A stretch of 49,646 bases of DNA from a virus (lineage: Duplodnaviria; Heunggongvirae; Uroviricota; Caudoviricetes): IMG/VR virus record IMGVR_UViG_2740892231_000005; one strand, written 5' to 3'. The position numbers and the translations under genes were made by a program. The notes below the pieces were generated by a model. The model had not been told where the DNA came from. It did no database searches and worked only from the letters and a program-made list of their open reading frames with translations. Of this stretch, positions 1 to 49,646 are shown one piece after another (position 1 is the first letter of the stretch; each line of letters opens with the position of its first letter).

Positions 1-55
1 GACAAAAGTCGGGCGGGATATTCTTGCGAAATCGACCGTTGCTGCCGTTATCGAA
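1..55 (+). repeat. Inverted duplicate of the 3' end of the tail-fibre constant region (reverse complement of 2955..3009), encoding [18 protein letters not shown]
   Basis: Exact match by eye to the reverse complement of 2955..3009; translation identical to residues of the 1929..4310 fibre. Confidence 0.8.
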
Positions 56-190
56 TTTTTTTTTTTTGTAGAACTCGGCACAAGCGGGGAGAAAATACCG
101 TTACTCAGTACAGCGAATACCTGGNNNNNNNNNNGAGAACTCGGCACAAGCGGGGAGAAAATACCGTTACTCAGTACAGCGAATACCTGG
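56..190 (+). other. Anomalous junction: T12 homopolymer (56..67), 55-bp exact direct repeat (70..124 and 136..190) flanking an N10 gap (125..134)
   Basis: Seen directly in sequence; the reading frame stays open across it (FFFF, VELGTSGEKIPLLSTANTW). Confidence 0.9.
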
Positions 191-835
191 ACTAATAGAC
201 AAACATTCAGCGGTGGCCTTTCTGGGGAACTGTCCGGCAATGCCGCTACTGCAACAAAGCTGAAAACAGCACGAAAAATTGCTGGAGTTGGTTTTGATGG
301 TTCTAGCGATATTTCAATTAGTGCCAAAAATGTCAATGCATTTGCACTCCGACAAACAGGTAATACTGTTAATGGTGATACATCCGTTGGATGGAATTGG
401 GATAGTGGTGCATATAACGCCCTGATTGGTGGTGCATCTGCATTAATTCTTCACTTTAATATAAATGCTGGTAGCTGTCCTGCCGTACAATTCCGTGTGA
501 ATTATAAAAATGGTGGCATTTCCTACAGGTCGGCTCGTGATGGTTATGGGTTTGAATTAGGTTGGTCAGATTTCTATACCACGACACGAAAACCTTCAGC
601 GGGAGATGTTGGTGCATATACGCGGGCAGAATGTAACTCAAGGTTTATTACAGGTATTCGCCTTGGCGGTCTGTCATCTGTTCAGACATGGAATGGTCCC
701 GGCTGGTCTGACAGGTCAGGTTATGTCGTTACGGGTTCAGTTAACGGAAACCGTGATGAATTAATTGATACAACACAGGCAAGGCCAATTCAGTATTGCA
801 TTAATGGGACGTGGTATAACGCGGGGAGTATTTAA
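191..835 (+). CDS. Tail-fibre variable C-terminal cassette (Sv'-like), no start codon of its own; in frame with the upstream Sc fragment from position 2
   Basis: Frame-2 ORF open from position 2 to stop at 835; ends ...QYCINGTWYNAGSI, paralogous to the C-terminus of the 1929..4310 fibre (...[13 protein letters not shown]); SGGL motif near the N-terminus. Confidence 0.6.
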   Translation, partial: TNRQTFSGGLSGELSGNAATATKLKTARKIAGVGFDGSSDISISAKNVNAFALRQTGNTVNGDTSVGWNWDSGAYNALIGGASALILHFNINAGSCPAVQFRVNYKNGGISYRSARDGYGFELGWSDFYTTTRKPSAGDVGAYTRAECNSRFITGIRLGGLSSVQTWNGPGWSDRSGYVVTGSVNGNRDELIDTTQARPIQYCINGTWYNAGSI

Positions 836-837
836 CG

Positions 838-1371
838 ATGATGCACTTAAAAAACATTACTGCTGGCAACCCTAAAACAAAAGAGCAATACCAGCTAACA
901 AAGCAATTTAACATCAAATGGCTTTATTCAGATGATGGAAAAAACTGGTATGAGGAACAAAAGAATTTTCAGCCAGACACTTTGAAAATGGTCTATGACC
1001 ATAACGGCGTTATTATTTGTATTGAAAAGGATGTTTCAGCAATTAATCCGGAAGGCGCAAGCGTCGTTGAATTACCTGATATTACAGCAAATCGCCGGGC
1101 TGATATTTCGGGGAAATGGTTGTTCAAAGATGGCGTAGTGATAAAGCGAACTTATACCGAGGAAGAGCAGAGGCAACAAGCGGAAAATGAAAAGCAAAGC
1201 CTGTTGCAACTTGTCAGGGATAAAACCCAGCTATGGGACTCACAGCTACGGCTGGGCATCATTTCCGACGAGAATAAACAAAAATTAACCGAGTGGATGC
1301 TCTATGCGCAGAAAGTCGAATCTACAGACACCTCCAGCCTGCCAGTAACATTTCCCGAACAACCTGAATGA
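838..1371 (+). CDS. Tail fibre assembly chaperone (Tfa/gpU family), partner of the Sv' cassette
   Basis: 177 aa starting MMHLKNITAGN; full-length paralogue of the 1400..1927 product; sits directly after a fibre C-terminal cassette. Confidence 0.8.
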   Translation: MMHLKNITAGNPKTKEQYQLTKQFNIKWLYSDDGKNWYEEQKNFQPDTLKMVYDHNGVIICIEKDVSAINPEGASVVELPDITANRRADISGKWLFKDGVVIKRTYTEEEQRQQAENEKQSLLQLVRDKTQLWDSQLRLGIISDENKQKLTEWMLYAQKVESTDTSSLPVTFPEQPE

Positions 1372-1928: not shown

Positions 1929-4310
1929 TTAAACGCTCGCTACATTATACCAGGTGCCATTTATATACTTTTGAACGGGTCTGTAATAAACGCCCGCTAT
2001 ATTATCGGCAGAGTTGGACCCTGTATCCTGAACATTAATACCAGACAATACATGACCTGACGGGCACTGGAAATTCCATGTTTGCCAGTTGTTCACTCCA
2101 TAATATTGCTGTGAACCAAGTCGAACATCTTTCACATATCTGGAATCAAAATTGCCATAGTTGCCGGGAATAACTTGCGAGCCGCAAAGCCAGTTCCCGT
2201 TATTATCCATGTACGCCTGACCATCGGTACCATTGGCTGTCCTTGAGTTATTAATCATGTAGATGCCAAATTGCTTATTTCCCAGCCCACCAATCATAAA
2301 TTTGCGATCAGCATGGTCCTGACGAAGTAATGCCTGCGCACCATCGGTGGATACCGCATTGCGTCCCAAAATAACATTCTGGTCACGCATATGAATCCAC
2401 ATGCCGGTACTACTGTTAATTGCAAAACGGTTTGCAAATATATCCCCTGTAACATCAAGACCATGCCCCATGCTTATCCGACCAGTTCTAAGATTAAGCG
2501 TAAAGGGGCGTAGTGGCCCTATATCACCATTTTCTCCCTCGTTCTCTCGTGTAGGGATGATATGCAGGCATTCTTCAGAACGGCGAAAAATGGCACCAAA
2601 AGATGAATTAAATATCCTCAGTGCATTGACTGTCGATATTTTTACTTCACTGCTGAAAAGGGCTTTAACAAGAACAGACAAAGCATCCCATTTAAGATTC
2701 ATCAGGTCTTTTGTTGTGGTGCTTTGTTTGCTTCTCCATTTGAAATATTCATTGCCGTTGTCGCCTGTTTCAAACCACATGTATGAATCAGTGTCGCTGT
2801 CGGCATCATTTTTAAATCCAATCTTTGCCCAGTCAGTATTTCGAATCCAGGCAAGAATTGAGTCATTTTCAAAAGTAAGCCCACCGGACAAGGTATCGCC
2901 TGTCTTTTGAACAGCGTTACCAGCCTTGTTTACCGTTTCCTGTAAACCGAGGTATTCGATAACGGCAGCAACGGTCGATTTCGCAAGAATATCCCGCCCG
3001 ACTTTTGTCAGGGTTGCCAGGCTAGCGACATCATTCCCCGTAAAATACGGAAACTTGTCTGCCGCAGTAGCAAGCCCGGCCAGCGCCGTCAGGGTGGCAT
3101 CTTTCGGTTGCTTACCCGCAAGCGCGTTAGTCATGGTGGTCGCAAAATTCGGGTCGTTTCCCAGCGCCGCCGCTAACTCGTTCAGCGTATTCAGTGCGTC
3201 AGGTGACGAGTCCACGAGGGCAGCGATCGCAGCCATAACGAAAGCCGTGCTTGCGATTTGGGTATTATTCGTTCCCTGTCGCGCAGTTGGCGTTGTTGGC
3301 GTTCCGGTCAACGCAGGACTGTTTAAGGGCGCTTTCTTGTTCGTTTCATCCATTACCGCCTTGACCGCTTTCGATGTCGCGGCCAGTGTTTCAGACGTGC
3401 TGTTGGTGGAACTACTGAGCTGAGTTATTCCCCTTACAGTCAGTGAAGCTACAGGCACATTTGTTATCTGCTCCCACGAATGCGTGTGATTGGACGGAGC
3501 CTTTCCGGCCGCAAGATCATACGCTGCCTTAACAGCCTTTGGTGTTGCTGCTAGCGTTTCAGACGTGCTGTTGGTGGCACTACTGAGCTGAACAATCCCT
3601 TTTCGCGCTGTGGTAGCGTCCTGTGCGGTGTATTTGCCATTAGCCAGGTCATATGCTGCCTTAACAGCCTTAGGCGTCGCAGCAAGCGTTTCAGACGAGC
3701 TATTGGTGGCGCTGCTAAGTTGAACAAAGCCTTTTGAGGTTAAAGTTGCATCAGGATGATTACGTGATTGTTCATGTTTCACAATGGCTTGCTTAAGCCG
3801 CTTTGCTGAAACAGCAAGGGAATCATCTGTACCGTCATCAATTTCTTGTTCATTGGCAAATCTTGCAACCCCAACAACAGTTTCGGTTGCGGGAGGATTA
3901 ATAAACTCAATATCACCAAATGTAATATTTTTAGTATCAAGAGTCTTGATTGCTATGTCACTTGATATTAAAGCAATAGTAGATGATGCTTTATTTATTA
4001 TTGCTTGTTCTTGCGAGTATACAGCAAACAACGTTCCCTTATTTGTATACAATCCTATTGTATGGACAACATACTCATCTTTACTATCATCCTTCGCCGT
4101 TACATGAATTGTATCAGGGGAAACAACTTTGCCACCTATTGTGGTAAGTCGTTTTATTTCGTTTGTTATATTTGTTTGTGAAGTTGACGTGACATAATAT
4201 CTACTACCTAAACCAACAGAAACAATCTCAACTTTATTTGTTCCTGTTTTGTTGGCATTAACCAGCTCCTGACGCCCGGCGTCAGTCATCGTAAATAATA
4301 ATTTACTCAC
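1929..4310 (-). CDS. Tail fibre protein (constant N-terminal part 2963..4310, variable C-terminal part 1929..2936)
   Basis: 793 aa; three copies of the fibre repeat (QLSSATNS[ST][18 protein letters not shown]); crossover site embedded at codons AAVIE|[10 protein letters not shown]. Confidence 0.9.
2886..2952. repeat. Inverted repeat, copy A (matches the reverse complement of 49580..49646)
   Basis: 67-bp exact inverted identity checked by eye; encodes the shared N-terminus of the variable cassettes ([20 protein letters not shown]). Confidence 0.85.
2937..2962. promoter_or_regulatory. gix/cix-like 26-bp invertase crossover site A (ttcctgtaaacc ga ggtattcgataa)
   Basis: Near-identical to the known Gin crossover site (TTCCTGTAAACCGAGGTTTTGGATAA, recalled from memory); lies at the constant/variable junction of the fibre gene. 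Confidence 0.7.
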
Positions 4311-28085: not shown

Positions 28086-28351
28086 TCATCATCTCCTGCC
28101 GCACATACAACCTCACAAAAAACATCAGCGGAATGTTTCTTTTTGAATGAATGGCGCTCAAAACCGCACTCAATATCAGGCGCAAAAACATCCACCACAT
28201 ACGGTCTTTCAGAATGTTTGTTTTCCCAACGATAAACCGTAGTGACGTTGAAATGTTTTAACGCTTCACGGAACTCAACGCTGCCAGTCAGGTTTTTTGA
28301 GGTCAGGTATTGCAGGAGGTTTTTTACTACTTCACGGTCTTGTACTTTCAT
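28082..28351 (-). CDS. Hypothetical protein, first gene downstream of promoter cassette copy 1
   Basis: 89-aa ORF; start preceded by the conserved leader. Confidence 0.5.
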   Translation of the reverse strand: MKVQDREVVKNLLQYLTSKNLTGSVEFREALKHFNVTTVYRWENKHSERPYVVDVFAPDIECGFERHSFKKKHSADVFCEVVCAAGDDE

Positions 28352-28466
28352 CGGGTTATCTCCGGTTTAACCAGGGCGGGTATCGCTCGGTTTCGGTTAT
28401 AACCTTAGGAAATTTTTTCCCACCCGTAAAGCACTTTTTATATAAATCTATAATTATATAATTCTA
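28352..28466 (-). promoter_or_regulatory. Repeated promoter/operator/leader cassette, copy 1
   Basis: About 110 bp near-identical to 35372..35490 and 45515..45630; ends in the TATAATTATA palindrome (28449..28458). Confidence 0.6.
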
Positions 28467-29051
28467 TGACACTTGCCAGAGAGCATCATGCAACTGGATA
28501 CCTCCGTTGCACTGGTTGCCCCAGCCATGCCAGCCATCAGGTAAATCACCGCGAGCAAACAGCTCAATACGAGGAACATCACCTAACAGTCTTACCAGCT
28601 TGTCACGAACCACATCAGGCTTCCGTGAATGTTCCAGACGAGGCGATGTAAACGACTGAATGATCCCCGCATCAAGGCGAGTCGGCAGTTTGCCTTTTAC
28701 CGCAAACAAGCAATCTTCACTGTTCGCACGAGTCATATGCCCCATCCCCATCACCAGCTTATCTGGCTGTCGGCTACCACATTTGTTCCATGTGAAGCCC
28801 TTCATGGTCATCAGCCTGAATCCCCATGCTTTCACCACCAGCAACGCTTCTTCTGGCTGAGTCGGAACCCACCACATGGCCAACAAACACGATTCAGGAT
28901 TAGCAAGCTGCCAGACAGGAATACGAGCAATCTCCTCAGCTTTCATCGTTGGATACTTAAAACCAGCTCCACGATTCCCATCCTTACACTTGTCTTTGTA
29001 TTCCCAGGGGGGATCTGCATAAATCAGATTAAACAATGCAATTGCCTCCAT
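28464..29051 (-). CDS. N6-adenine DNA methyltransferase, MT-A70 family
   Basis: 195 aa; DPPW motif in the N-terminus (LIYADPPWEY). Confidence 0.8.
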   Translation of the reverse strand: MEAIALFNLIYADPPWEYKDKCKDGNRGAGFKYPTMKAEEIARIPVWQLANPESCLLAMWWVPTQPEEALLVVKAWGFRLMTMKGFTWNKCGSRQPDKLVMGMGHMTRANSEDCLFAVKGKLPTRLDAGIIQSFTSPRLEHSRKPDVVRDKLVRLLGDVPRIELFARGDLPDGWHGWGNQCNGGIQLHDALWQVS

Positions 29052-29349: not shown

Positions 29350-29425
29350 GAGAGTGAATTGGTGGCCCCTACCGGATTTGAACCGATGACCGTGCGATTA
29401 TGAGTCGCCTGCTCTAACCACTGAG
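29350..29425 (-). tRNA. tRNA with CAU anticodon (Ile2/ileX-like, or Met)
   Basis: 76 nt; cloverleaf folds by hand (acceptor GGCCCCT/AGGGGCC, D-stem GCTC/GAGC, T-stem ATCGG/CCGGT, CCA end); one mismatch at the top of the anticodon stem. Confidence 0.8.
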
Positions 29426-29604
29426 CTAAGGGGCCATATTTGATCTGTTTGTCTGGTGTGGCGCCGCGCACGAAAATCCCAGCCAATAAATTCAGGATTT
29501 TTGGGCGCGGCGGCATATCAGACAAACATGGTTGATGCATGCGCTAATGAGAAAAGCGCATAGAATGTTGTAACTATATATTTATATAATTATAGAAATA
29601 TATA

Positions 29605-34303: not shown

Positions 34304-35371
34304 TCAGGCTTTCAATAGCGATTCTTTTAGATATCGGGCATCAGCCAGGGCGTTTGGAGTAATCTTGCGAACCCATGCATTACGGGTTGGACTCCACTTA
34401 AAGGCGCGTGATTTAAGCAGCGAACGAATGTTTGCCTCTGGTTTGCCAGGGAAATAAAACAGGATGCGGTTATCCTCTGGATCTATCTCCATAGAAAAGC
34501 CGTCGTATTCTTCGCGCTGTGCTCCTGTTACAGACTTGACCGATTCAAGCTCCTTAATACGGCTCTGTAGTCGTTTGATTTCGGCGTTATTGTTGCTCAG
34601 TGCGTATGAAGGGAATCCGATGCGCCCACAGAAATCTCCGGCCAGTAACTCTTTGGCTTCGCTTTCTGTAAACCTGAGATCGATTAATGCAGAAAGCTGC
34701 TGTAATTGGTCTTTTTTGTATTTGCGAATGGCCTTATTTGCGGCCTTCATTTTGACGTGTGACTTCATGCAGCCTTGCAGCTTACGAAGCAACTTAAATA
34801 GCGCATCAGGATCATCAGACGAAATTCCATTACGACCAACACCTGCGGCTTTGCTCTCGTAGTGTGATGCTTTACTTTCGCATTCAACAAACGCTTTTCT
34901 TAATAACGCATCAGCTTTAGACAAACGGCGGCGATGGCCTTTCGCGCTATAATGGTCAACTAAAATCGGCTGGCCTAACGGGATCACATCCAACAGGTCA
35001 TGCGCTCGCTTATGCGCTACCGCACCTTCTTTTCTGGCTTTTTCTGCACGAGCAATATATCGGGCAAGACGCGCGTTCTGGCGTTCCTGATAGGTGTTTA
35101 CGTAATCATCTCCGCGCTGCTGCTGTTCAAGCCATGCTTTGCGCAGATCTTCTGTTACGTCCACCAGCTCCGCAGGGATACAACCAGTTTGGGCTTCATA
35201 AGAGTAACCATCCTCATAGATACGCCCATCATCTTCAACAAAGAAAAAGGTTTCGTGCTCATCGCTTTTGACCATACGACCATTAACATGGCGTAATAGG
35301 TAGCCAGTATCAGTGCTTAACAGGCTGTTAGGGTTGTTGATCCAGTCAGAAATAATTACTTGTTTATTCAT
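34304..35371 (-). CDS. DUF3560-like protein (tentative), first gene downstream of promoter cassette copy 2
   Basis: 355 aa from MNKQVIISDW (start chosen by conserved leader and RBS); C-terminal FYFPGKP...FKWSPTRNAW motif. Confidence 0.5.
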   Translation of the reverse strand: MNKQVIISDWINNPNSLLSTDTGYLLRHVNGRMVKSDEHETFFFVEDDGRIYEDGYSYEAQTGCIPAELVDVTEDLRKAWLEQQQRGDDYVNTYQERQNARLARYIARAEKARKEGAVAHKRAHDLLDVIPLGQPILVDHYSAKGHRRRLSKADALLRKAFVECESKASHYESKAAGVGRNGISSDDPDALFKLLRKLQGCMKSHVKMKAANKAIRKYKKDQLQQLSALIDLRFTESEAKELLAGDFCGRIGFPSYALSNNNAEIKRLQSRIKELESVKSVTGAQREEYDGFSMEIDPEDNRILFYFPGKPEANIRSLLKSRAFKWSPTRNAWVRKITPNALADARYLKESLLKA

Positions 35372-35490
35372 CAGATTTCTCCGGTTTAACCAGGGCGGGT
35401 ATCGCTCGGTTTCGGGCATAACCTTAGGAAATTTTTTCCCACCTGTAAAGCACTTTTTATATAAATCTATAATTATATATTTATAGATTT
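35372..35490 (-). promoter_or_regulatory. Repeated promoter/operator/leader cassette, copy 2
   Basis: Near-identical to copies 1 and 3; contains TATAATTATA (35468..35477). Confidence 0.6.
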
Positions 35491-40506: not shown

Positions 40507-40528
40507 AAAAAAGGCCCCCGAAGGGGCC
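40507..40528 (-). terminator. Intrinsic terminator hairpin (ggccccc-gaa-ggggcc) with U-run on the minus strand; possibly bidirectional
   Basis: A6 run on the plus strand 40507..40512 immediately 5' of the stem. Confidence 0.55.
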
Positions 40529-40537
40529 TAATCGCTA

Positions 40538-40660
40538 CTTGCTGCTAATGTTTATCGTCACATTCAGAGCGTTATCAGTAATCTTCCAACCCTCCCCATG
40601 TGGCGTAAACAAAGCTCCAGTAACAACGATAAAAATACACATACAGTATTTTTTCATTGT
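40538..40660 (-). CDS. Small ORF (40 aa, MKKYCMCIFIVVTGALFTPHGEGWKITDNALNVTINISSK) with signal-peptide-like N-terminus
   Basis: Hand-translated; AAGGG RBS 6 nt upstream; terminator directly downstream. Confidence 0.3.
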
Positions 40661-41054
40661 ATGGCCCTTACAGGCCGTTTCACGGCATCCCCACCGACGA
40701 AAACAACGCGAGAGCAAGCACGGCTGCTTGTGCTTGCATGTACGGCAACGGAGAATCCTCCCCTAAAGTCGGTGCCCGGGTGCGAATCGGCGGGAAGGTC
40801 CACAGGTATTTTACGATTATTTTAAGATTAGTAATAGGAAAGAAATTAAACGAAAAAACTCGTTTATTTTCACAAAATCAGTAACCTACCCACAATCTGT
40901 GAGTTTGCAGGCACAACAAGAACCACAATTTTTTGAAGCATAATAGTGGACTATTATTACCTTTTGGGTAAAATTAACTTGCTGCTTGTGCTTGCGTGGT
41001 TGTTTATACAACAACGTAATGCTGAAAGGACCGCGAATCCGATCAGCACGAAAG

Positions 41055-41789: not shown

Positions 41790-42081
41790 TAGTCTGTTAA
41801 AATCCGCCGTATTGACATGAATGCGTCATTGGTGGACACTTTCCGAGCCGTAGCAAAATCTACGGTCGGGATTGGCGTCCCGATTGCACAATGGCGCATA
41901 CCGCGTTAGCGGTTTTTTTATGCGTAAAGCACTGCTACACCCAAATTATGGTGGGGCGTGCGGGGGCGGAGAAATCCGCGCCGGGTTTGTCATTGTGCCG
42001 GTTACGCCAACCCTGTACGTCTCACCACCATATTGATTGGCGTCATTGGTGGTGATAGTTCCTTTAATCGGAGATATCACA

Positions 42082-45133: not shown

Positions 45134-45514
45134 TTACTTAACGAGGAATAAAAATGGTTTATTGTTCGGCGGTGTAATCGGGGCTGGCTCGCTTTTGCTC
45201 ATGCGATCAGTGTACCAGGCCAACTCCTTGTCAAAGTAAGCCTGATTAAAATAGGCCATGAATGTAGTTTCAAATCCATAACGACCGCTAATACGCAGCA
45301 TCTGATTGCCGTTCTCTGTTTCCAGATATACCTGGGCACGTTCCTGATTCTCCTTCAGCCAGGTTAAAGCCTCATCGCATGAGGACACACGATACTCATC
45401 ATCGTAGCAGTCATCGATGCGGCTTGAGGAAGAACGGCAAATCACGCCAACAGAACCAGCCAGGATAGTTTGAATTTTAAGGAAAGCGTTTTTGCGGATT
45501 TTAATCATGCTCAT
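45134..45514 (-). CDS. Hypothetical protein, first gene downstream of promoter cassette copy 3
   Basis: 126-aa ORF with the conserved leader and RBS upstream. Confidence 0.5.
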   Translation of the reverse strand: MSMIKIRKNAFLKIQTILAGSVGVICRSSSSRIDDCYDDEYRVSSCDEALTWLKENQERAQVYLETENGNQMLRISGRYGFETTFMAYFNQAYFDKELAWYTDRMSKSEPAPITPPNNKPFLFLVK

Positions 45515-45630
45515 CGGGTTATCTCCGGTTTAACCAGGGCGGGTATCGCTCGGTTTCGGGTATAACCTTAGGAATTTTTTTCCCACCTGTAAAGCACTTT
45601 TTATATAAATATATAATTATATAATTCTAT
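45515..45630 (-). promoter_or_regulatory. Repeated promoter/operator/leader cassette, copy 3
   Basis: Near-identical to copies 1 and 2; TATAATTATA at 45612..45621. Confidence 0.6.
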
Positions 45631-45635
45631 GAGCA

Positions 45636-47786: not shown

Positions 47787-48779
47787 TTAATGTTGGAGTG
47801 ATTTCCAGGTCTTTCTTAGCCTGTTATAACGCTGCTCAACGAGGGAGCGTAAATATGCAAGGTCAGCACCAGGATACATGCCATCAGCAAATTCCTGGCT
47901 AACCTCTCTAGTGATTTGATGGCGAAGTTCGGCCTCTCCCTTTTCCTGAACAAGACGCGCAGCTCTCTCCGCTGCTTTCTGTTTTGCCTTTATCTCTCTG
48001 GCCGTCTTCCTCTGACGCCATACATTCTCCATCTGCTCCTGAATAACAATACGCTTATAATCAGCCTCCGTTATCGCTTTTTTAAGCCGTTCGCTATTCT
48101 TCGCATTGAAGTAATTAAGTTTCTGGCTAACCGCACGTCTCCATGCTTGTTCAGTAATACCAACTGTTTCCAGCAGTTGATCACGAATCTCGATTTTCGC
48201 TGGCCAATACTGTTTATTCACCCGATCCCAGCGACGTTCATAATCAATAAAACCTAACTCTTTCAGTTGCGACAACGCCCTTGTACAGCGCGTTATAGAC
48301 TTGTTCCCAGCTTCGGATACGGTAGACAGGCCGCAAAAATCAGCCAACGCCTCAGCACTGGCCAGAACCCGCTTAGAAATGATGTTTACATGGTGCAAAA
48401 TCGCAGCAATCACAGCATTAATCGCCCGACGACGATGCTCGTTTATCCGGCGTTTCCGCTCTGACGGTTGATTAACGTAGAACGCAACCTCACACGTAAG
48501 ATCACGACCATTAATGCGCTGTAAAGCATCAGATAACACCAGCGGCAGCTTGTGCGTATGGTGCTTTGGAGGCTGGAACTCCGGCGACAAATTACAAACG
48601 TAAGCTGAACGTAGAGACGGCATTGGTCTATCCATATGTTCGCTCTTGCGTCCACGGAAAACCAACGTATAATGGGAGTTGTCGAGGCGCCCATGGTTAG
48701 TTGTTGGTTTTCCTTTCCGTGGATGTCGCAAGAAGCCCGCAGATTTATCTGCGGGCTTTTTGTTTCCATATCTGGTCAC
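47787..48779 (-). CDS. repA: Plasmid replication initiator, IncFII RepA1-like
   Basis: 330 aa; SITRCTRALSQLKELGFIDYERRWD resembles the recalled RepA1 segment SITRATRALTFLSELGLITYQTEYD. Confidence 0.75.
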   Translation of the reverse strand: MTRYGNKKPADKSAGFLRHPRKGKPTTNHGRLDNSHYTLVFRGRKSEHMDRPMPSLRSAYVCNLSPEFQPPKHHTHKLPLVLSDALQRINGRDLTCEVAFYVNQPSERKRRINEHRRRAINAVIAAILHHVNIISKRVLASAEALADFCGLSTVSEAGNKSITRCTRALSQLKELGFIDYERRWDRVNKQYWPAKIEIRDQLLETVGITEQAWRRAVSQKLNYFNAKNSERLKKAITEADYKRIVIQEQMENVWRQRKTAREIKAKQKAAERAARLVQEKGEAELRHQITREVSQEFADGMYPGADLAYLRSLVEQRYNRLRKTWKSLQH

Positions 48780-48950: not shown

Positions 48951-49505
48951 TCAATGATTCCCAGCCGGAAACCTGCGGTAAAGCGTGGATAAGGTAACAT
49001 CGAAGATAATCGCTATCCGCTTACGTGAAACACCATTCGCAATAAGCCTTCCGATCTGTTCCCATTGCTCTGGTGCCAATTTTGAGCGGCGTCCTCCTAT
49101 CCTGCCGTTAGCCCTTGCCACCGCCAATCCTGCACGCGTTCTTTCAATCATATTTTCCCGCTCCATCTCTGCGACTGCACTCAGCATCGTGTAGGCAAAG
49201 CGGCCAATTGAAGTGCTAATTTTTATCCCTTCCGTAATCGAAATAAACTCAATGTTGTTTGATAAAAAATAGTTTAGTAAATCAACAAGATGAATCAGAG
49301 AACGCCCCATTCGGTCCAGCTTCCAGACAATAACCGTATCGCCCGGCCGTAACACCTTCAGTAGCTTATCAAGTCCTGGTCGTTTTGATTTAGCACCGGA
49401 TATTTTATCTTCAAAAATCCGGTCACATCCTGAACTCCTGAGCGCCTCCAATTGTAATTCCAAATTCTGGTCAAAAGTTGACACCCTCGCATAACCATAT
49501 TGCAT
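48951..49505 (-). CDS. Serine DNA invertase, Gin/Cin/Pin/Hin family
   Basis: 184 aa; N-terminal YARVSTFDQ with catalytic Ser; alignable by eye with Gin along the full length. Confidence 0.95.
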   Translation of the reverse strand: MQYGYARVSTFDQNLELQLEALRSSGCDRIFEDKISGAKSKRPGLDKLLKVLRPGDTVIVWKLDRMGRSLIHLVDLLNYFLSNNIEFISITEGIKISTSIGRFAYTMLSAVAEMERENMIERTRAGLAVARANGRIGGRRSKLAPEQWEQIGRLIANGVSRKRIAIIFDVTLSTLYRRFPAGNH

Positions 49506-49569: not shown

Positions 49570-49595
49570 TTCGCAAAAACCTCGGTTTACAGGAA
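49570..49595. promoter_or_regulatory. gix/cix-like crossover site B (ttcgcaaaaacc tc ggtttacaggaa), inverted relative to site A
   Basis: Shares the half-site ggtttacaggaa and central dinucleotide with 2937..2962; 65 bp upstream of the invertase start. Confidence 0.7.
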
Positions 49596-49646
49596 ACGGT
49601 AAACAAGGCTGGTAACGCTGTTCAAAAGACAGGCGATACCTTGTCC
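49590..49646 (+). CDS. 5' end of a tail-fibre variable cassette (partial; runs off the window end)
   Basis: Translates to [19 protein letters not shown], identical to the N-terminus of the variable part of the 1929..4310 fibre. Confidence 0.6.

Follow-up and report, generated by a model that had tools for sequence, protein, structure and literature searches.

Evidence for a Gin/Cin-type two-site invertible tail-fibre segment in a circular Escherichia coli phage-plasmid whose contig was opened inside the segment

The tail-fibre segment, its crossover sites, and its invertase

The DNA analysed here (the window) is the 49,646-bp caudovirus record IMGVR_UViG_2740892231_000005, which is the complete contig CCPU01000141.1 of assembly GCA_000752815.1. 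The window holds a circular Escherichia coli phage-plasmid of ~49.5 kb. The tail of this element is of myovirus type and its replicon of the IncFII RepA kind; it carries a tail-fibre gene with two alternative C-terminal cassettes, two crossover sites, and a serine DNA invertase gene. An initial annotation, made from the letters alone, had read the locus as a Gin/Cin-type fibre inversion switch whose two crossover sites lie at opposite ends of the linear sequence. The features of the locus are listed below; Sc denotes the constant part of the fibre, Sv and Sv' its two variable parts, U and U' the chaperone genes that accompany them, and gin the invertase-gene side of a junction.

135-835, plus strand: Sv' cassette, the alternative C-terminal part of the fibre (translation ELGTSGEKIPLL...NAGSI; weak Pfam gp37_C match)
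838-1371, plus strand: U' gene, tail-fibre assembly chaperone of Sv', 177 amino acids (Pfam Caudo_TAP, E = 1.1e-36)
1376-1395, no strand assigned: G+C-rich hairpin AAGGCCCG-ATAG-CGGGCCTT separating U' from U, which are convergent (terminator-like match at the corresponding place in L010, 8917-8936)
1400-1927, minus strand: U gene, tail-fibre assembly chaperone of Sv, 175 amino acids (Pfam Caudo_TAP, E = 1.5e-37)
1929-2948, minus strand: Sv cassette, the C-terminal part of the fibre in the orientation shown (793-amino-acid open reading frame; Pfam Gp34_trimer, residues 494-604)
2937-2962, plus strand: crossover site A (Sc/Sv), TTCCTGTAAACC GA GGTATTCGATAA, core 2949-2950 (direct reading, pattern scan)
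2949-4310, minus strand: Sc, constant N-terminal part of the fibre, ~454 amino acids, present in both fibre forms (Pfam Phage_fiber_2 repeats)
48951-49505, minus strand: serine DNA invertase gene, 184 amino acids, transcribed away from the segment (Pfam Resolvase, E = 3.4e-44; HTH_7, E = 2.9e-13)
49421-49483, minus strand: candidate Fis-dependent recombinational enhancer, inside the invertase gene toward the 5' end of its coding sequence (suggested by a consensus scan)
49570-49595, plus strand: crossover site B in the gin/Sv recombinant form, TTCGCAAAAACC TC GGTTTACAGGAA, core 49582-49583 (direct reading, pattern scan)

The placement of both crossover sites in the initial annotation holds: site A is embedded in the 793-amino-acid fibre open reading frame (1929-4310, minus strand) at the junction of its constant and variable parts, at residues ~450-456 (VIEYLGL), and site B lies beside the 184-amino-acid invertase gene, 64 nt upstream of it and 46.6 kb from site A in the linear sequence. 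The two sites are inverted relative to each other, are 26 bp each, and have the common core TC when both are read from the outside to the inside of the segment; the inner half-sites of the window match those of Mu gix. A search of the whole contig for further gix-like 26-mers, which the annotation had proposed, returned only these two intact sites. A 20-nt site pattern allowing up to 3 mismatches matched only sites A and B in the window (0.02 matches expected), and a looser 16-position palindromic consensus gave 2 matches at 13 or more of the 16 positions (0.35 in shuffled sequences). Exactly two sites, with core TC, were also found in every relative examined for which both segment ends lay inside the fetched DNA. 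In the table of sites compiled for the window and its relatives (L001-L030), the core TC is constant and the inner half-sites are conserved, while the outer half-sites vary by element family; the inner half-sites GGTTTACAGGAA, GGTTTACGAGAA, and GGTTTGCAGGAA, together with the core TC, are common to Mu, P88-like phages, and the family of the window.

With both crossover sites counted in full, the segment comprises 2,849 bp, within which the cassettes form convergent pairs of a fibre tip and its chaperone, with the constant part of the fibre outside; the hairpin between the two pairs is likely a two-way terminator. The fibre open reading frame encodes 793 amino acids as shown and 689 amino acids after inversion in silico, with the first 456 residues identical, up to ...VIEYLGL. 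The open frame of Sv' extends from position 137 to the stop codon that ends at 835, and positions 135-139 (GAGAA) are the final 5 nt of the true site B, which in contiguous orientation consists of 49570-49590 plus 135-139 and reads TTCGCAAAAACC TC GGTTTACGAGAA. The same string immediately precedes Sv' in the relatives L008, L010, and L011 and forms site B of plasmid CP099184, a close relative. Three direct repeats of ~93 nt, at a spacing of 132-168 nt, occupy window positions 3343-3735 in Sc and correspond to the Pfam Phage_fiber_2 repeats.

The predicted invertase matches the Gin structures 3UJ3 (E = 1.6e-61) and 4M6F over its full length and is 54% identical to Mu Gin, with the catalytic Ser9 kept in an invariant RVST motif. 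Its identity is 99% with the invertase of Yersinia phage vB_YpM_39, 99.5% with that of vB_YpM_44, and 55-60% with other phage invertases, and the exact protein is present in 1,208 blocks of a public gene index. The Resolvase and HTH_7 domains, the 3UJ3 match, the inverted 26-bp sites, and a cassette DNA that shares 88-94% identity with invertible segments from Mu, D108, P1, P7, D6, SfMu, and P88-like phages all agree with the annotated Gin/Cin type.

Residues Q150, R153, and L154 are invariant in an alignment of this invertase with Gin and a P88-type invertase and correspond to Hin Q151, R154, and L155, residues that touch Fis and whose conservation is limited to enhancer-dependent invertases (PMC3798978). 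The Hin enhancer consists of two Fis sites 47 bp apart, ~100 bp from hixL (PMC3798978). The candidate enhancer of the window contains two Fis-like 15-mers, TGTCAACTTTTGACC and GTTCAGGATGTGACC. The stretches that they occupy, 49469-49483 and 49421-49435, have centres 48 nt apart, at distances of ~107 nt and ~155 nt to that of site B. In Mu gin and in a P88-like invertase gene, a simple scan with a weak Fis consensus placed the equivalent pair at matching codons, and several codons in this part of the gene are identical across eight invertase genes, including TCA for Ser9, CAA for Gln18, and TGT for Cys27. The Fis-like pair and the conserved codons are consistent with an enhancer without proving one. 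A search for a sigma-70 promoter of the invertase gene gave no convincing candidate.

The contig ends, the true circle, and both orientations in relatives

Six further features concern the contig ends and the replicon:

1-56, plus strand: copy of the end of Sc, the Sc side of the flipped Sc/Sv' junction (frame reads ...KSTVAAVIE; absent from L010 and L011)
48-73, plus strand: corrupted Sc/Sv' site, TTATCGAATTTT TT TTTTTTGTAGAA, which in intact relatives reads TTATCGAATACC TC GGTTTACGAGAA (relatives and in-silico inversion)
57-69, no strand assigned: anomalous T11GT in place of ACCTCGGTTTACG, of the same length and with the frame kept (comparison with the predicted junction)
125-134, no strand assigned: scaffold gap of ten Ns, flanked by an exact 55-nt duplication (70-124 = 136-190; repeat finder)
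47787-48779, minus strand: IncFII-type RepA gene, directly beside the invertase gene
49591-49646, plus strand: inner end of the gin/Sv site (49591-49595, AGGAA) and the start of Sv, a flipped junction (inverted repeat, in-silico inversion)

It had been noted initially that site B is followed by 54 bp of the start of the variable cassette in inverted orientation, and that the start and the end of the window both map into positions 2886-3009. Both observations stand, and the first proved to be an understatement: positions 2886-2956 and 49576-49646 form an inverted repeat of 71 nt (99% complementary, 68 nt exact), and window positions 1-56 are the 100% reverse complement of 2954-3009. When the segment was inverted in silico at the central TC, the predicted gin/Sv junction equalled the window end exactly, through base 49646, and the predicted Sc/Sv' junction equalled the window start save for 13 positions (57-69). 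The contig ends thus represent both reciprocal products of a single inversion, and the assembler joined them to a backbone that internally carries the opposite arrangement (Sc/Sv, site A). This refines the earlier reading, in that the ends are not a plain circular overlap but the gin/Sv and Sc/Sv' junctions of the other orientation, and it is for this reason that the two ends share no overlap with each other. Since the ends are junctions of the opposite orientation, the sequenced culture probably held both orientations.

In independent assemblies of a near-identical plasmid, window base 135 abuts base 49590 directly. Two such Logan contigs, L010 and L011 (runs SRR1643165 and SRR24257862), which encode the identical 793-amino-acid fibre protein, follow the window in descending order from 10310 to 135 and continue without interruption at 49590, as far as 45581, with 99.99-100% identity in the first stretch. 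In the orientation shown, the true circle is window 135-49590, or 49,456 bp, in agreement with relatives of 48.4-49.1 kb; bases 1-134 and 49591-49646 are surplus to this circle and lie off the L010/L011 path. The circular Yersinia phage vB_YpM_39 (49,027 bp) is collinear with the window around the circle, at ~92-99% identity in aligned blocks, and the break in this alignment falls exactly inside the invertible segment. Many E. coli carry the same element as a closed circular plasmid of ~48-50 kb (e.g., ATCC 25922 unnamed_1, p48 of strain 1428, and pAPSLC-48K), and in the closed plasmids the invertase gene adjoins the fibre segment. The L010/L011 path, the collinearity with vB_YpM_39, and the closed plasmids bear out the proposal of a circular genome opened inside the invertible segment, and a linear genome with terminal inverted repeats was ruled out because of the closed circular relatives and the contiguous L010 path. 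The RepA gene, the ParA gene and RelE/HigB toxin-antitoxin pair present in relatives, and the P2-like tail genes together identify the element as a phage-plasmid. Its family, a common one of ~48-kb phage-plasmids, includes the plasmid of E. coli ATCC 25922 and the Yersinia phages vB_YpM_39, 41, and 44.

The two pieces that meet at the scaffold gap overlap by exactly 55 nt, and the base before the overlap differs (T69 versus G135); such a pattern is what a scaffolder typically leaves after k-mer assembly, and the first 124 nt are a separate small contig. The corrupted site in this small contig was compared base by base with L005 2548-2573, L016 3484-3509, and L024 1091-1116. Together with a matching T at position 56, the T11 forms a run of 12 Ts at 56-67, which is the sole homopolymer of at least 10 bases in the window. 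The stretch at 57-69 has perfect flanks of 56 and 55 nt. The exact corrupted 35-mer was absent from the viral, genome, and metagenome collections scanned. The anomaly at 57-69 probably arose as an artefact, in a read or through gap filling, where a minority junction had low coverage, although it is odd for an artefact. That the junction at 48-73 is instead real, from a subpopulation in which 13 nt of the Sc/Sv' site were rewritten in frame (...VIE-FFFFV-ELGTS...), appears extremely unlikely; if true, the T-run would abolish the site and fix the fibre as the Sv' form, and it would suggest either that strand exchange by the serine invertase can end in an aberrant way not known before or that some event killed the site.

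The junctions of the flipped form, generated in silico, were searched by BLAST. The closed plasmid p48 aligns in one piece with the flipped form of the window, whereas the unflipped form aligns only with its middle inverted, and the Sc/Sv' site of p48 is intact (TTATCGAATACC TC GGTTTACGAGAA). Among contigs with an identical invertase and the same cassette pair, L021 carries the Sc/Sv and gin/Sv' junctions and L023, L024, L026, and L029 carry Sc/Sv' and gin/Sv; overall, relatives with the same invertase and cassettes divide by orientation into L010, L011, and L021 versus L016, L023, L024, L026, and L029. The two chaperone genes also stand in opposite order in vB_YpM_39 and vB_YpM_44. These sequences indicate that the segment inverts in nature and that both orientations occur. 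The cassette content is mosaic among near-identical plasmids, suggesting that cassettes are swapped as modules bounded by the sites. Mobile elements were observed inside the segment of two relatives, an IS3-family element in Sv of one and Tn5403 in Sv' of the other (L008 10465-11693; L014 10422-13319), and each insertion should disable one fibre form. In L027 188-4555 (GCA_026235235.1), the segment stands between two different invertase genes, a P88-like one of 199 amino acids and the plasmid one of 184 amino acids; L027 is probably a chimeric assembly formed via cassettes common to a prophage and the phage-plasmid.

Preferred reading, alternatives, and other features

The reading that we prefer, with a probability of about 0.93, is that the window represents a circular phage-plasmid with a classical two-site invertible tail-fibre segment of Gin/Cin/Pin type, opened inside the segment by the assembler. 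In the Gin and Hin systems, invertase dimers at two sites assemble with a Fis-bound enhancer, the 2-bp core is cut, and strands are exchanged by a 180-degree rotation. By the established properties of this family, the 184-amino-acid invertase would bind both sites, form a complex with Fis at an enhancer located within the 5' part of its own coding sequence, cut all four strands at the central TC, rotate half of the complex by 180 degrees, and religate the ends. Inversion would join the constant 454-amino-acid part of the fibre either to Sv (793 amino acids, with chaperone U) or to Sv' (689 amino acids, with chaperone U'), and the change of fibre tip would switch receptor specificity; by analogy with Mu and P1, the two fibre forms may confer different host ranges. 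The assembler would have opened the circle inside the segment and added the junctions of the minority orientation to the contig ends, and it is because of this opening and these appended junctions that the two sites appear 46.6 kb apart.

Several points weigh against this reading. The probable mixed orientation of the sample is drawn from the contig ends only, and one of the two minority junctions is corrupted by the T-run at 57-69. Furthermore, the enhancer is a consensus-level candidate only, the proposed activity of the invertase and its dependence on Fis derive from properties of its family, and the invertase is just 54-60% identical to characterised invertases.

An origin of the surplus ends that would leave the plasmid in a single orientation is assembly chimerism, for example with a co-resident Mu-, P88-, or e14-like prophage that has cassette sequence in common with it. 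Chromosomes of E. coli very commonly carry homologous cassettes (the junction query matched 1,131 of 5,426 genomes), two different invertase flanks seem to be joined via a shared segment in at least one public contig (L027), and the window start is corrupted and was scaffolded with Ns. However, at the window end the plasmid-specific invertase flank passes, precisely at the core and as predicted for the recombinant, into 68 nt that are identical to Sv of the plasmid itself; the 56 nt of Sc that open the window match the plasmid at 100%, while the prophage copies examined differ at several bases; and the two ends together are the reciprocal products of a single inversion. We consider a chimeric origin of the ends very unlikely. 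The initial annotation had itself offered another alternative, a Min-like system with three or more sites and cassettes, and a shufflon-like arrangement may be considered with it, part of the array having been lost in the gap. Such a system could account for the ten-N gap and corrupted junction at 48-134, as well as for the joining of the same Sv start to two different flanks in one contig, but L010 and L011 run through the gap region without a break and contain no additional sequence there, the 49,456-bp circle agrees with relatives of 48.4-49.1 kb, and the recombinase is a serine invertase and not an Rci-type tyrosine recombinase. Only two sites are present in the window and in relatives with both segment ends fetched, and the extra size of the larger relatives is accounted for by Tn5403 or IS3 in the segment and not by added cassettes; the Min-like alternative was therefore rejected, and we see next to no chance of a multi-site system here.

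Contigs of this very common phage-plasmid family break or are mis-scaffolded where the segment inverts; for the present contig, the true circle is now placed at window 135-49590.

Outside the segment, a 122-nt repeat is present in three copies that are 87-97% identical (28348-28469, 35367-35488, and 45511-45632). Read on the minus strand, it consists of AT-rich, 8-bp-periodic TTATATAA/TCTATAAT units, a conserved leader of ~90 nt, a ribosome-binding site, and an ATG, and AT-rich blocks also occur at 29566, 34232, 39211, 39284, and 39992. The repeat looks like a repeated promoter/operator and leader for three operons; it had no Rfam match, and its predicted fold was not significant (z = -1.7). 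Rfam matches above the gathering score elsewhere in the window were a C4 antisense RNA (P1/P7-type immunity RNA; 41944-42032), isrK (41847-41919), ryfA (40507-40803), and one transfer RNA (29363-29435).

Comparison with known invertible segments

The Yersinia phages vB_YpM_39, 41, and 44 and the ~48-kb E. coli plasmids belong to the same element family as the window. Their DNA identity with it is ~92-99% over aligned blocks that take in most of the genome; their sites are the same, and their invertase is either identical or 99% identical. Members differ in their mosaic cassette content, and the segment is unannotated in their records. No paper on the switch of this phage-plasmid family was found in the literature, and none mentions vB_YpM_39, 41, or 44. 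Two candidate identities for the family were set aside: pSLy3 is SSU5-related and so belongs to another family, and the phage-like plasmids of a paper on enterotoxigenic E. coli are of P1 and pHCM2 type.

Recombination systems that differ from the window in basic layout include Hin, Min, and the shufflons. Hin/hix of Salmonella has a recombinase of the same family, 26-bp sites, and an enhancer in the recombinase gene ~100 bp from the nearest site, but it flips a promoter and not coding cassettes, and its recombinase gene is inside the inverted segment. Min of p15B, like the window, uses a serine invertase of the same family that acts on fibre-gene cassettes. Min has six crossover sites and many cassettes, whereas the window has just two sites and two cassettes. 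Shufflons use a tyrosine recombinase (Rci) and multiple 19-bp sfx repeats; a shufflon was rejected for the window, in which the recombinase is of the serine resolvase/invertase type and the sites are two gix-like 26-mers.

P88-like Peduoviridae (Xuanwuvirus P88, P884B11, 520873, and 503458) have the same Sv' cassette as the window, the inner half-site GGTTTACGAGAA, and the Sc half-site TTATCGAATACC, and both orientations occur among their records. They differ in an invertase of another lineage (199 amino acids, 55% identical), in the gin-side half-site TTATTTAAAACC, and in being integrated prophages. The Cin-bearing phages P1, P7, and D6 and the Salmonella phage SJ46 are, like the element in the window, plasmid prophages with an invertible fibre segment, with cassettes of ~90% DNA identity, and the pin gene of the P1-like SJ46 is 89.8% identical in DNA to the invertase gene of the window. 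Unlike the window, P1-type genomes are 90-100 kb with another replicon, and the Cin-like invertase of D6 is 57% identical. The P1 C segment has inverted repeats of 0.6 kb; the cassettes of the window, by contrast, diverge right past the 26-bp site.

The G segment of Mu and D108 has the organization of the window, with a fibre gene split into Sc and Sv/Sv', the U and U' genes, two inverted 26-bp sites, and an invertase gene that lies just outside the segment and is transcribed away from it. The inner half-site GGTTTACAGGAA and core TC of Mu are identical to those of the window, and the cassette DNA is 88-90% identical. The outer half-site of Mu is TTATCCAAAACC, whereas the window has TTATCGAATACC and TTCGCAAAAACC as well as GGTTTACGAGAA as the inner half-site of Sv', and Mu is a transposable phage while the element in the window is a phage-plasmid, circular, with an IncFII RepA replicon and a baseplate that is P2-like. 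The system is in kind a textbook Gin/Cin host-range switch with little that is new mechanistically. Fibre cassettes with conserved inner half-sites are common to Mu-like, P1-like, and P2-like phages and to the phage-plasmid family described here, and their invertases differ by ~45%.

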